Assembly: GCA_035717985.1 (NCBI GenBank)
Contig: DASTHW010000006.1
Span: 1-48,847, forward strand
DNA length: 48,847 bases
Reading direction: 5' to 3'
Source: Candidatus Saccharimonadales bacterium
GTDB lineage: Bacteria > Patescibacteriota > Saccharimonadia > Saccharimonadales > UBA10212
The number at the start of each line of letters is the position of its first letter. The first letter of the stretch is position 1. Shown one piece after another: positions 2,828-6,290 of this stretch. Both the position numbers and the translations under genes were made by a program. Below the pieces are notes generated by a model. That model did no database searches. It was not told where the DNA came from and saw only the letters and a program-made list of their open reading frames with translations.

Positions 2828-5731
2828 TTAGTTGACTTTGGCGAGTGAGAGACTCAGGCTCTCTTTATCGATTTTAATGGTTTGGGAATAGTCGGCCTCG
2901 CCAGCAAGCTCCCCTACCGCTAAAGTCTCAGCAAAGATAATAGTCCTAAACTTATCCCAAGCCTGCTGTATGCCGGTAGATTCGGTCTTAATAACTAGCT
3001 GAATGCGGTCATCAACGCTCAGTCCTGCCTTTTTGCGAGCGGCCTGGATATGACGGATGAGTTCCCTAGACAGTCCTTCCACCTTTAGATCATCACTAAT
3101 CTCTAAATCAAGCTCTGTTTTTGGCAAGGCCTTAGTGGTTAGTTTTAGCCACTTCACAGCCTTTACGTTAAGCTCTTCTTTGATTATCTCGAGTATTTCA
3201 GGACTAAATTCAGCTTTAGAGTACACTACAGCGGATTTTAGGGGCTGGCGGACCTTTATGCCAGCCTCGGCCCGTTGGGCTAACCCCTGCGCAATAAGTT
3301 CGCGAGCCTCCGCCATCTCTTTAAGCACAAGTCCATTCACCTGACCAGCCGGCGGCCAGTCGCTTAAGTGAACCGACTCCCCACCGGTTAGTTTCTGGTA
3401 GAGTTCTTCTGCCAGAAAAGGTGTAAAGGGGGCTAAAACGAGGCTTAAGCGAATTAAAACGTAATGAAGGGTTTTATAGGCCTCATCTTTATCCATATCG
3501 TTGTCGCTTTTCCAGAAACGCTTGCGACTCCGCCTGATGTACCAGTTGCTGGCGTCGTCGATAAACAGTAGAACACCTTTAAGGGCGCCAGGTATGTCAT
3601 AGCGGTCCATGCCGCTTTCAATTTCAGCGGTCAATTGATGGGCCCGCGAAACGACCCATTGATCCAAAGGATGAGTTAACTGCTGATAAGGGTCTTCTAC
3701 CTTCCCGTCCCACTGCCAACCGTCCACCTCGGCATAGAGAGTGAAAAAGTCGAACATATTCCAAATCATATTTAATTTACGGGCCGTATCAGATACATCC
3801 TTATCTTTTAAGGAAAAATCTTCACCATTTAAAAGCGGCGAGGAGAGGAACAAAAACCGTAGGGCATCGGCGCTATATCGGTCCATTAGCTCGTTGGGGT
3901 CAGTGTAATTACCGTAGTTTTTGCTCATCTTACGCCCGTCATTGCCGGCGATGGTGCCAGTAACGATAACATTTTTAAAGGAGTTAGTTCCAAACAAACC
4001 AATTGATACAACGTGCAGGTAATAAAACCAGGCCCGTACCTGGCCCACATACTCAGCAATGAAGTCCCCGGGGAAGTTTTGCTCGAATTTTTGCTGATTT
4101 TCAAACGGATAATGAAACTGGGCAAACGGCATAGAGCCAGCCTCAAACCAGCTGTCCATTACTTTATCTATTCGCTTATACTGCACGCCGTCAATTTCAA
4201 AAGTTACTTCATCTATCCAGGGCCGATGGTAGTCCTCTAGCTCAACGCCAGAGAGCTCTTTTAGCTCGGCGTAACTGCCAACTACCTTAACCAGTTCGTG
4301 GCCGTTTTTATCTTTACCCTTCCAGACCGGCAGAGCCGTAGCCCAAAAGCGGTCGCGGCTAAGGTTCCAATCGGGTGCCTGGACGATGTTTTTCGAAAAT
4401 CGGCCATTTTTAAAGTGTTCCGGGAACCAATAGATGTTTTTATTTTCTTCGAGCATAGTCTCGCGCTGGCCGTCGATGTCCATGAACCAGCTGGGGTGGG
4501 CCCGGTACATCAAGCGGGTGCCACAGCGGTGACAATGCGGATAGGAGTGAGTTATGTATTCAATTTTCCAGACCCTGCCGTCTTCTTGCAGTTTTTTGGC
4601 TATATCTTTGTTAACATCCCAAACTAGCCGACCTTTCCAGGCTCCCTCGGTGTAAAAACCGTTGTCGTCAATCAAGCTAACAACCGGGAAGTCTTTTTCT
4701 TTAGCTAGCTGGTAGTCTTCTTCACCGTAGGCCGGTGCCAGATGGACAATACCGGTGCCCTCTTCAGTACTGAGGCCTGGGTAATGCCAGACTTTATGAG
4801 CATTCTGGCCACGGTCTACAAATAATGGCTCGTATTCTTGGCCAATTAACTGATCGCCAGTTATACCTGATTTGATTAACTTATAGCTTAACAGCCTATG
4901 CTTATCGTCAGTAAGCACCTTAGCGACCAAGTCATTGAGAAGTATCAGGACCTCTCCGGATTCAAGTTCGATCTGGGCGTAGCGCTGGTTTTTACCGACT
5001 CCCACCGCCGTGTTAGCTGGTAGGGTCCAGGGAGTAGTAGTCCAAGCCAAAAGATATATCGGCTTACTTTCATGGCTCACATTTTTTAGCTTAAATTTGA
5101 CGTAAACCGAGGGGTCTGTCACATCTTGATAGGAGTTATCCATGGCCACTTCGGCTTTGGCTATGGGCGTGGCATCACGCGTACAATAAAGTAAAACTTT
5201 CTCACCTTCGTAAATTTTGCCGTCATCATAAAGCTTTTTAAAAGCCCACCAAACCGACTCCATGTAGGGCTTATCCATGGTTTTATAGGCGCCTTTAAAA
5301 TCTACCCAGCGGCCAATCCGAGCGATAGTGTCTTCCCATTCACTGCCGGTTTGGACCATATTCTGACGACAGGTTTTAATGTAGTCTTCTAGGCTAATTT
5401 TGGTGCCAATGTCACGTTTATCAACTATCCCTAGTTTGCGCTCGGTAAAAACTTCGGCCGGCAAACCGTGGCAGTCCCAGCCCCAAACCCGCTCTACCCT
5501 TTTACCTTTCATGGTTTGGTAACGCGGTACGGCGTCTTTTACGATAGACGACAAAAGGGTTCCGTGGTGTGGTACACCGGTGATAAAAGGCGGTCCGTCA
5601 TAAAAAACATAACTGTCAGAGGCTGGCCGGGACTGGACCGATTTCTCAAAAATCTGATGGTCGCGCCAGTATTTAATTAGAGCCTTTTCGTACTCAATCG
5701 GCTTACGGCGCTGGTTGGCTTTAAATTTCAC
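2828..5731 (-). CDS. ileS: Isoleucine--tRNA ligase, type 2 (IleRS2)
   Basis: FYDGPPF..G.PHHGT (HIGH equivalent), GWDCHGLPAE, DWNLSRDRFW, KMSKN, type-2 C-terminal EGLSRELIRHIQAARK; GTG start with GGAG Shine-Dalgarno. Confidence 0.97.
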   Translation of the reverse strand: MKFKANQRRKPIEYEKALIKYWRDHQIFEKSVQSRPASDSYVFYDGPPFITGVPHHGTLLSSIVKDAVPRYQTMKGKRVERVWGWDCHGLPAEVFTERKLGIVDKRDIGTKISLEDYIKTCRQNMVQTGSEWEDTIARIGRWVDFKGAYKTMDKPYMESVWWAFKKLYDDGKIYEGEKVLLYCTRDATPIAKAEVAMDNSYQDVTDPSVYVKFKLKNVSHESKPIYLLAWTTTPWTLPANTAVGVGKNQRYAQIELESGEVLILLNDLVAKVLTDDKHRLLSYKLIKSGITGDQLIGQEYEPLFVDRGQNAHKVWHYPGLSTEEGTGIVHLAPAYGEEDYQLAKEKDFPVVSLIDDNGFYTEGAWKGRLVWDVNKDIAKKLQEDGRVWKIEYITHSYPHCHRCGTRLMYRAHPSWFMDIDGQRETMLEENKNIYWFPEHFKNGRFSKNIVQAPDWNLSRDRFWATALPVWKGKDKNGHELVKVVGSYAELKELSGVELEDYHRPWIDEVTFEIDGVQYKRIDKVMDSWFEAGSMPFAQFHYPFENQQKFEQNFPGDFIAEYVGQVRAWFYYLHVVSIGLFGTNSFKNVIVTGTIAGNDGRKMSKNYGNYTDPNELMDRYSADALRFLFLSSPLLNGEDFSLKDKDVSDTARKLNMIWNMFDFFTLYAEVDGWQWDGKVEDPYQQLTHPLDQWVVSRAHQLTAEIESGMDRYDIPGALKGVLLFIDDASNWYIRRSRKRFWKSDNDMDKDEAYKTLHYVLIRLSLVLAPFTPFLAEELYQKLTGGESVHLSDWPPAGQVNGLVLKEMAEARELIAQGLAQRAEAGIKVRQPLKSAVVYSKAEFSPEILEIIKEELNVKAVKWLKLTTKALPKTELDLEISDDLKVEGLSRELIRHIQAARKKAGLSVDDRIQLVIKTESTGIQQAWDKFRTIIFAETLAVGELAGEADYSQTIKIDKESLSLSLAKVN

Positions 5732-5752: not shown

Positions 5753-5940
5753 AGCCCTCAAAGGCTTCTGGATTCCGCGCCCAGCGGAAGGTACCATCCA
5801 GATTCCTTTGAGGGCTTTTTATAAGTCTCTCAAAAGCACTTTTTTACGGTTTCGGACCGTTGACCGCCAGGTTCTACTAAGCCGTAGGTTTCTATCCGAC
5901 CGTTCTTCCTAAGTAGCTTCGCGGGTGATAGCCGCTCATT
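5753..5940 (-). ncRNA. T-box riboswitch, ileS class with ultrashort stem I
   Basis: Minus strand: stem I GAGCGG-CUAUCAC-CCGCGAAGC with AUC at 5927-5929; stem II AGGAAGAAC...AGUAGAACCU (5869-5910); stem IIA/B-like CGGUCAACGGUCCGAAACCGU; antiterminator UCUGGA-[UGGUACC]-UUCCGC...GCGGAA-UCCAGA (5767-5802). Confidence 0.88.
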
Positions 5941-6020
5941 CGCCTGCTCAGGGGCGAAGCGCTTTAACTCTATTTTACAGTTTAATTTTACCGAAAAAAG
6001 GTTAAAATTACAACCTTATA

Positions 6021-6290
6021 CTAATAGGAGTAGGCGTAGGCGTCTAGATCTTGCATTAAGGGCAATTGCTCTTCTTGCCACAACTGCTGAAGCCGGCCAT
6101 CGCGGCTAATTATCAAGATAGCTGGATAACTAGTGACGTCATAAAGCCGTGCCATTTCGGCACCCTGGACTGTCTCTAGGCTTAACATTTCTGGTTCGGT
6201 CTCTTGGTGGCGGCGGTGATACTCATGAGCATAGTCCATAATCTTGCCGGCATGTTCGCTTTCGGGATGGTATAGAAAAACTATGCGCAT
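6021..6290 (-). CDS. Small hypothetical protein, thioredoxin-like fold without cysteines
   Basis: 89 aa; ARLYDVTSYPAILII resembles the cis-Pro strand of Trx folds; no CxxC. Fold call is inference. Confidence 0.65.
   Translation of the reverse strand: MRIVFLYHPESEHAGKIMDYAHEYHRRHQETEPEMLSLETVQGAEMARLYDVTSYPAILIISRDGRLQQLWQEEQLPLMQDLDAYAYSY

Follow-up and report, generated by a model that had tools for sequence, protein, structure and literature searches.

A T-box leader with an ultrashort Stem I ahead of ileS in a Saccharimonadales genome, and a proposed terminator built on Stem III strand exchange

The ileS locus and identification of its leader

The window, i.e. the whole stretch of DNA that was analysed (48,847 nucleotides of contig DASTHW010000006.1, from a Candidatus Saccharimonadales bacterium), carries on its minus strand an open reading frame that was assigned to ileS by TIGR00392 (774 bits against a cut-off of 621) and by the Pfam domains tRNA-synt_1, Anticodon_1 and DUF5915. 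Between this gene and a gene of 89 aa (6021-6290) lies a T-box leader, the extent of which was matched nearly exactly by the interval of the initial annotation (5753-5940). The features of the locus are:

6013-5985, minus strand: promoter-like site, a prediction; TTGTAA (6013-6008), 17-nt spacer, TAAAAT (5990-5985)
5944-5743, minus strand: T-box leader, immediately upstream of ileS
5742-5737, minus strand: Shine-Dalgarno (SD) sequence AAGGAG, read from the sequence
2828-5731, minus strand: ileS, 967 aa, with a GUG start codon at 5731-5729

The promoter-like site has 9 of 12 consensus matches in a consensus scan and would place the transcript start at about 5978. The fold of the leader is more stable than that of its shuffled versions (z = -3.2). 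The genome assembly amounts to 835 kb at a completeness of 96% and is akin to hundreds of genomes of 0.5-1.8 Mb; these sizes and this kinship agree with the label CPR/Saccharibacteria. At 5939-5958 of the minus strand, immediately 5' of Stem I, there is also a hairpin, UUCGCC-CCUGAGCA-GGCGAA, which overlaps the GGCGAAUGA flank; it could either lend stability to the 5' end or be a competitor of the base of Stem I. The relatives G024, G012 and G047 have comparable hairpins on the 5' side of their Stem I.

The upstream regions of ileS were taken from 52 relatives, and the same element was found by motif in 21 of them. From the leaders of relatives only, we built a covariance model (R1) that runs from Stem I through A1' (145 positions, 23 pairs); as MAFFT misaligned helix A2, the seed used A2 trimmed to 4 bp with a 4-nt loop. 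R1 recovered the leader in the window with 93.7 bits (E 1.5e-19), as the single match in the 835-kb genome. Covariation was counted on real sequences realigned to R1: across 82 leaders 99.1% of cells were paired, and 20 of the 23 pairs had changed on both sides. In 500 shuffles of the columns no observed measure was ever reached, and sliding the partners by 1-3 columns brought pairing to 28-48%. Because the alignment was fitted to R1, these covariation figures lean towards the R1 structure, although the margin is very large.

Rfam gave no match at the gathering threshold anywhere in the window, and a search of the whole genome with RF00230 gave none either. In a permissive search of 501 nt the latter reached 19 bits (E 0.044) against a cut-off of 93, and so comparison with the Rfam T-box model, which had been proposed as a check on the initial annotation, fell short. 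Yet the same model detected just 8 of 20 CPR and actinobacterial leaders, all of them below 93 (33-40 bits for actinobacterial leaders, 32-52 bits for the five CPR leaders detected, 32-52 bits overall). Since known actinobacterial ileS T-boxes also fail, the failure reflects the model and not the RNA, and annotation misses both the CPR and the actinobacterial classes. Standard annotation thus overlooks the whole class, its Rfam scores lying far under threshold. Comparative sequence analysis confirms this leader as a genuine T-box riboswitch upstream of ileS, predicted to read tRNA-Ile. The initial annotation had called a complete ileS T-box, and indeed all of the elements that it named are present on the minus strand. 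It had made no mention of Stem III (5836-5805), the purine motif AAGUG (5841-5837) or the 12-bp helix P0 (5816-5805 with 5764-5753).

Predicted recognition of tRNA-Ile by the decoding and discriminator elements

The decoding half and the discriminator are composed of the following elements:

5944-5936, minus strand: Stem I 5' flank GGC-GAAUGA, possible partner GAA-GCU (5920-5915)
5935-5921, minus strand: ultrashort Stem I, 4 bp (GCGG/CCGC) with the 7-nt loop CUAUCAC
5929-5927, minus strand: specifier AUC in the Stem I terminal loop; the next base is A, a purine
5912-5867, minus strand: Stem II with S-turn, AAGAA of the 5' strand opposite AGUAGAA of the 3' strand, flanked by an outer helix
5866-5846, minus strand: Stem IIA/B pseudoknot, IIA CGG/CCG, IIB formed by loop ACGGU with downstream ACCGU
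5841-5837, minus strand: purine motif AAGUG, corresponding to the RRRxG string before Stem III
5836-5805, minus strand: Stem III, CUUUUGAG / CUCAAAGG, loop of 16 nt; AA and A1 come next
5802-5767, minus strand: acceptor-end binding hairpin, A1 UCUGGA/UCCAGA (5802-5797 with 5772-5767) and A2 (5789-5773)
5796-5790, minus strand: 7-nt T-box bulge UGGUACC, between A1 and A2

Stem I is a hairpin of 15 nt, in place of a long Stem I with a distal platform for the tRNA elbow, and its specifier, AUC followed by A, agrees with the regulated gene, ileS. All four of its pairs covary in the 82 leaders (e.g. UA:42 and CG:40 at one pair), with 99.4% of cells paired. Stem II begins 9 nt past Stem I; compensatory changes occur at all 4 pairs of its outer helix, and the S-turn motifs are near-invariant (alignment A2). 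The IIA pairs are formed in 99.2% of cells, and the IIB pairing, which as a pseudoknot lies outside the modelled pairs, is a direct reading of the sequence. The leader therefore combines a specifier in the loop of a short hairpin with Stem II, its S-turn and a IIA/B pseudoknot, an arrangement of actinobacterial type. The initial annotation had placed AUC in the terminal loop of an ultrashort Stem I and an S-turn in Stem II, both of which are upheld by the covarying pairs around them, and the element that it described as IIA/B-like proves to be a true pseudoknot. The flank GGC-GAAUGA and GAA-GCU may, tentatively, form a GA/K-turn-like base of Stem I. A simple test found a 3-bp lower Stem I helix in 34 of 77 leaders within the order, and outside the order such a helix covaries by eye (GGC/GCC, GAC/GUC, AAC/GUU, AGC/GCU, UGC/GCA).

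In T-box discriminators a purine string, RRRxG, precedes Stem III (PMC7583486). Here, too, the purine motif, Stem III and AA stand in this order ahead of A1, and the AAG of the motif is invariant in alignment A2. The Stem III hairpin, which we propose as the anti-terminator element, was found in 73 of 80 related leaders and is absent from 7. Covariation was seen at five of the six A1 pairs and all four A2 pairs in the 82 leaders. The bulge between the two helices reads UGGUACC in 71 of 80 leaders; the variants are UGGAACC (5), UGGCACC (2) and UGGUAUC (2).

In five genomes of the same order, the anticodon loop of tRNA-Ile(GAU) reads CUGAUAA and the tRNA ends in ...GCCC-A-CCA (A73), which fits AUC-A in Stem I and UGGU in the bulge. 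The fourth base of the bulge is thus complementary to the discriminator base of the relatives' tRNA, as the initial annotation had anticipated for U and A73. ARAGORN found 44 tRNAs in the assembly of the window, tRNA-Ile(GAU) and tRNA-Ala(UGC) not among them, so A73 is verified from the five same-order genomes only. These two tRNAs are usually located in the rRNA operon, which is probably missing from the assembly and would account for their absence. Three CAU tRNAs are clustered on contig 5 (C5:67599-68878); one of them (C5:68802-68878) closely resembles those CAU tRNAs of relatives that an E. coli tRNA-Ile query matched best, and may be a lysidine-type tRNA-Ile2. Among the variant leaders, UGGAACC (L017 in G016, L021 in G054, L027 in G042, L100 in G316 and L139 in G188) and UGGCACC (L118 in G213 and L144 in G265) would require discriminators U73 and G73, respectively. 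The assemblies with these UGGA and UGGC variants likewise yielded no tRNA-Ile(GAU), and their CAU tRNA-Ile2-like genes have A73.

Helix P0, the U-tract and the proposed switch

Past the acceptor-end hairpin, two further elements lead up to the SD:

5764-5753, minus strand: P0 3' strand CCUUUGAGGGCU, pairing with AGCCCUCAAAGG (5816-5805)
5752-5743, minus strand: AAUAC followed by UUUUU, the U-rich tract (5747-5743) being displaced from P0

The segment AGCCCUCAAAGG is made up of the loop end and the 3' strand of Stem III, and P0 is a perfect 12-bp helix that encloses the intact A1/bulge/A2 hairpin. When the downstream strand is left out, the minimum free energy fold of the window's leader contains Stem III and A1/A2 (-24.3 kcal/mol); when it is included, the fold contains P0 and A1/A2 (-42.0 kcal/mol). 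We counted P0 in 80 leaders with a recognisable U-tract, using a bounded helix finder because RNAduplex-style scoring over-extended into the A/U tails. P0 was of at least 8 bp in 66 of these leaders and ended 0-1 nt from the U-tract in 72, and its 5' strand was overlapped by the Stem III 3' strand in 65. Its median length in the family is 11.5 bp when bounded and 15 bp if extension into the A/U tail is allowed, against 12 bp in the window. In two outliers, one of them the window, the U-run lies away from P0; the window reads GGGCU-AAUAC-UUUUU, with a gap of about 5-6 nt that was scored as 6 nt. P0 5' strands fell into 35 sequence clusters, for which the cognate partner scored 20.1 compared to 12.8 +/- 3.5 for non-cognate ones; it ranked first in 14 of the 35 clusters and among the top three in 23.

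In the canonical design it is the 3' half of A1/A2 that serves as the terminator 5' strand. Here, the downstream strand pairs with the A1/A2 3' strand over 5 bp at best (family median 7 bp), and the ordinary terminator is confined to a minority of leaders (L023, L031, L012, L018, L036), several of them lacking Stem III; in G041 this ordinary design reads UCUCAGC-GAUAAGA-GCUGAGA-U6. The nested layout, with P0 around A1/A2, recurs outside the order. Since P0 abuts the U-tract in 72 of 80 leaders, we read it as a nested terminator that would compete with Stem III, and since one strand has two conserved, mutually exclusive pairings, the stabler of which lies by the U-tract, we read the whole as an attenuator.

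The initial annotation had instead described the acceptor-end hairpin as an antisequestrator, which implies an action on translation. On such a reading, which follows the actinobacterial model, the change of fold would alter access to the ribosome-binding region (U-rich tract and AAGGAG, 5747-5737), and no transcript would end prematurely. The decoding module is indeed of the actinobacterial translational type, and the published view links an ultrashort Stem I to translational control; moreover, the U-tract of this copy is offset from P0 and directly adjoins the SD, and in the absence of P0, GGGCU (5757-5753) could by sequence reading pair with AGCCC (5738-5734) beside the SD. However, neither the A1/A2 3' strand nor P0 holds a complement to AAGGAG that could sequester the SD, and P0 ends 10 nt ahead of the SD and leaves it free. 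Near the SD we saw a single pairing, and its logic is wrong, since it would form when the tRNA is bound. Furthermore, 72 of 80 relatives have U5-8 directly behind a helix, the mark of an intrinsic terminator, whereas the actinobacterial leaders have no U-tract. A translational mode of action was therefore not borne out, and we consider it unlikely for this leader.

We think it reasonably probable that a tRNA-Ile-responsive T-box controls ileS through strand exchange at Stem III, with P0 and the U-tract as the terminator. Motifs, covariation and the tRNAs of relatives suggest that uncharged tRNA-Ile(GAU) would be read by AUC in the terminal loop of the ultrashort Stem I, a codon-anticodon contact that would be supported by the S-turn of Stem II and by the IIA/B pseudoknot, and that the A73-CCA end of the tRNA would pair with UGGU of the A1/A2 bulge. 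From the covarying alternative pairings, the switch itself would be a three-strand exchange at Stem III and not at the antiterminator. With the tRNA holding the discriminator (AAGUG, Stem III, AA, A1/A2), Stem III would retain its 3' strand. When uncharged tRNA is lacking, the strand made after A1 would capture the Stem III loop and 3' strand to give P0, which would enclose an intact A1/A2 and, abutting the U-tract as it does in the family, form an intrinsic terminator just ahead of the SD. Read-through into ileS would then occur only with uncharged tRNA-Ile, and the element protected by the tRNA would be Stem III, not A1/A2. If true, the downstream strand of the terminator replaces the 5' strand of Stem III. 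Judged by its sequence, the off-switch resembles a transcription terminator of a construction not described before.

Several points stand against this proposal. In the window AAUAC comes between P0 and the U-tract, an arrangement ill suited to intrinsic termination, and with 5-6 nt between them termination may be weaker in this copy. As to the strand exchange, 7 of 80 relatives have no Stem III and some have the ordinary A1/A2 terminator. P0 also keeps A1/A2 and the bulge, and would stack under A1 at the place expected of Stem III; there is hence no evident reason why the tRNA could not bind the P0 form as well, and the sequence by itself does not account for how the tRNA would prevent P0, least of all where Stem III is lacking. 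Finally, transcriptional T-boxes are generally said to need a long Stem I platform for the elbow, an ultrashort Stem I going with translational control (PMC7583486), and this published requirement speaks against a transcriptional reading.

P0 could also be thought of as a long-range substitute for Stem III in the tRNA-bound state, with the U-rich tract serving another role, e.g. in ribosome loading. It would stack under A1 at the site of Stem III with the same strand running into A1, several members of the phylum have, in place of a Stem III hairpin, just the 5' strand of P0 to link the purine motif with A1, and Stem III is reported as required for binding of the 3' end (PMC7583486). But Stem III (73/80) and P0 are mutually exclusive and both conserved, the hallmark of a switch, and a U-tract helix stabilised by uncharged tRNA would have the wrong sign, shutting ileS off in starvation. 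Such a substitute role is, in our view, very improbable. The strand-exchange model that we prefer makes the role of Stem III as the tRNA-locked element directly testable, in that the terminator would capture Stem III and leave the antiterminator zipped.

Distribution in the phylum and comparison with known T-boxes

R1 matched 335 of 401 genomes of the order (84%; 216 of 256 genera), nearly always as a single copy, and 144 of 401 genomes sampled across the phylum (36%), about 120 of them outside the order and with up to four copies per genome. Infernal's stricter filters were used for these large scans, so the frequencies are lower bounds. Outside the order, 59 of 60 matches precede genes for aminoacyl-tRNA synthetases (ileS 29, valS 21, aspS 8, thrS 1), and throughout the phylum the loop codon tracks the gene: AUC with ileS, GUC with valS and GAC or AAC with aspS. 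The aspS leaders L160, L177, L194, L199, L203 and L209, all outside the order, have the specifier GAC (Asp) or AAC (Asn), and some of these aspS genes encode non-discriminating Asp-tRNA(Asn) ligases; in genomes with an AAC-type leader or non-discriminating aspS, the supply of the enzyme may be tuned to tRNA-Asn. In four leaders of the window's own order (L108 in G043, L117 in G232, L093 in G341 and L102 in G113) the T-box is followed not by ileS but by a small unrelated ORF. In G043 ileS comes about 660 nt later, and in genomes of this type the leader may control a short operon.

The window's own family departs from this pattern, and the element is being lost there: 17 of 24 same-family genomes of the order sample have no R1 match, and in G036 and G015, the relatives with the most similar IleRS (89% identity), ileS is preceded by a short spacer of roughly 35-80 nt. 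The same upstream gene (C-terminal ...YPAILV...DG..QMWQ...) is kept in the relatives without a T-box (L009 in G036, L010 in G015, L015 in G008 and L020 in G044), and in this family clean deletions of the entire leader seem to have happened repeatedly. The copy in the window could thus be a decaying relic that no longer regulates. Its score of 93.7 bits is among the lowest in the order (mostly 100-129), its IIA/B linker has lost the usual CCGUUACAGC motif, and its U-tract is interrupted. Against this, no helix is broken, P0 pairs perfectly over 12 bp, IIB has 5 bp and compensates for the changed linker, and AUC, AAGUG, AA and UGGUACC are all kept. Neutral decay would not retain two alternative pairings of one strand, and that both are intact together with all helices argues against simple decay, making a relic quite improbable.

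Was the element acquired from a host? The initial annotation had pointed to a host-like design that was possibly acquired, and the distribution does not bear this out, as the class is found in 84% of the genomes sampled from the order and in 36% of those sampled from the phylum, where valS, aspS and thrS are served by it too. Such breadth and diversification within the phylum make recent uptake from actinobacterial hosts unlikely and argue for a long residence of the class in the phylum. The N-terminal identities of IleRS are uninformative on transfer, the window's enzyme having about 51-56% identity to actinobacterial fragments and 42-76% to other members of the phylum. Within the order and family the IleRS N-termini fall into two groups, with 68-89% and about 40% identity to that of the window, and both carry the leader; G012, G053 and G060 are examples of the latter group behind the same T-box. 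From these sequences, replacement of the synthetase gene behind a retained leader is suggested.

In the library of full texts that was searched, there was no paper linking T-boxes with Saccharibacteria, Patescibacteria, the candidate phyla radiation or TM7. TBDB applied its translational Ile model to Actinobacteria only, and a 2024 perspective on Patescibacteria mentions riboswitches solely as tools for import. For the Patescibacteria/CPR as a whole, we see an even chance that there is an unannotated T-box class which combines transcription attenuation without elbow contact, strand exchange at Stem III (A1/A2 being kept inside the terminator) and diversification to Ile, Val, Asp/Asn and Thr. 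The ultrashort Stem I has so far been described as a translational, ileS-only speciality of Actinobacteria; if the phylum-wide class is true, that translational ileS T-box would be one branch of a wider and older ultrashort lineage. A family that joins a miniature decoding arm to a terminator would also challenge the rule that co-transcriptional control needs a long Stem I. Genome-reduced episymbionts would, moreover, keep RNA-based feedback on their aminoacyl-tRNA synthetases, and the genetics now emerging for Patescibacteria would have in this family a source of native regulatory parts.

Among known systems, the closest is the ileS T-box of Actinobacteria (Mycobacterium tuberculosis / M. smegmatis / Nocardia farcinica type), whose ultrashort Stem I was described by Seliverstov 2005 (PMC1262725) and, as cited in PMC7583486, by Sherwood 2015. 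In 301 genomes of the phylum of Streptomyces avidinii, R1 gave 32 matches at E <= 0.1, one per genome, the best at 55 bits and aligning across the whole model (positions 1-145); 19 of the 20 matches that were re-scored are ileS-type leaders of 33-55 bits. The high-GC matches lie upstream of ileS and read GAUCCGGCYAUCACCGGGGAGCCUUCGGAAGAA...AGUAGAACCGAACGGGU.GGCCCGUCACAGCC...GAGCG, Stem III, AAGCGGGGUGGUACCGCG. These leaders have no U-tract, with GGAG 35-110 nt further on, which is the layout of the published translational class (PMC1262725, PMC7583486). One actinobacterial sequence also has an M-box (Mg2+) riboswitch (RF00380, 152.7 bits; L258:682-851) about 650 nt upstream of its ileS T-box.

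The label actinobacterial-type therefore holds for the decoding half, in which R1 aligns end to end and motifs are shared, but not for the output half, with its U-tract and its lack of an SD sequestrator. Both systems have AUC in the loop of a 4-bp hairpin and no elbow platform, the S-turn GGAAGAA / AGUAGAACC and a near-identical ACGGG..CCCGUCACAGC motif, the IIA/B element ACGGG..CCCGU.ACAGC, the order purine motif, Stem III, AA, A1, UGGUACC, A2, and a position upstream of a type-2 ileS. They differ in that R1 scores at most 55 bits in Actinobacteria compared to 84-129 for all but one of the 82 leaders of the order, and in the Stem I loop (6 nt there, 7 nt in the window). In Actinobacteria the SD is sequestered by the A1 3' strand (PMC1262725), whereas here P0 encloses the antiterminator ahead of a U-rich tract; and in the phylum of the window the class serves valS, aspS and thrS as well. 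With the canonical transcriptional T-box (RF00230; tyrS and glyQS of Bacillus subtilis) the leader shares the sensing logic, Stem II and IIA/B, the discriminator motifs, UGGNACC and, immediately before the gene, a hairpin with a U-tract behind it. Unlike it, the window has no long Stem I with an elbow platform, and the terminator 5' strand would come from Stem III and not from the 3' halves of A1/A2, so that A1 and A2 would persist inside the terminator.
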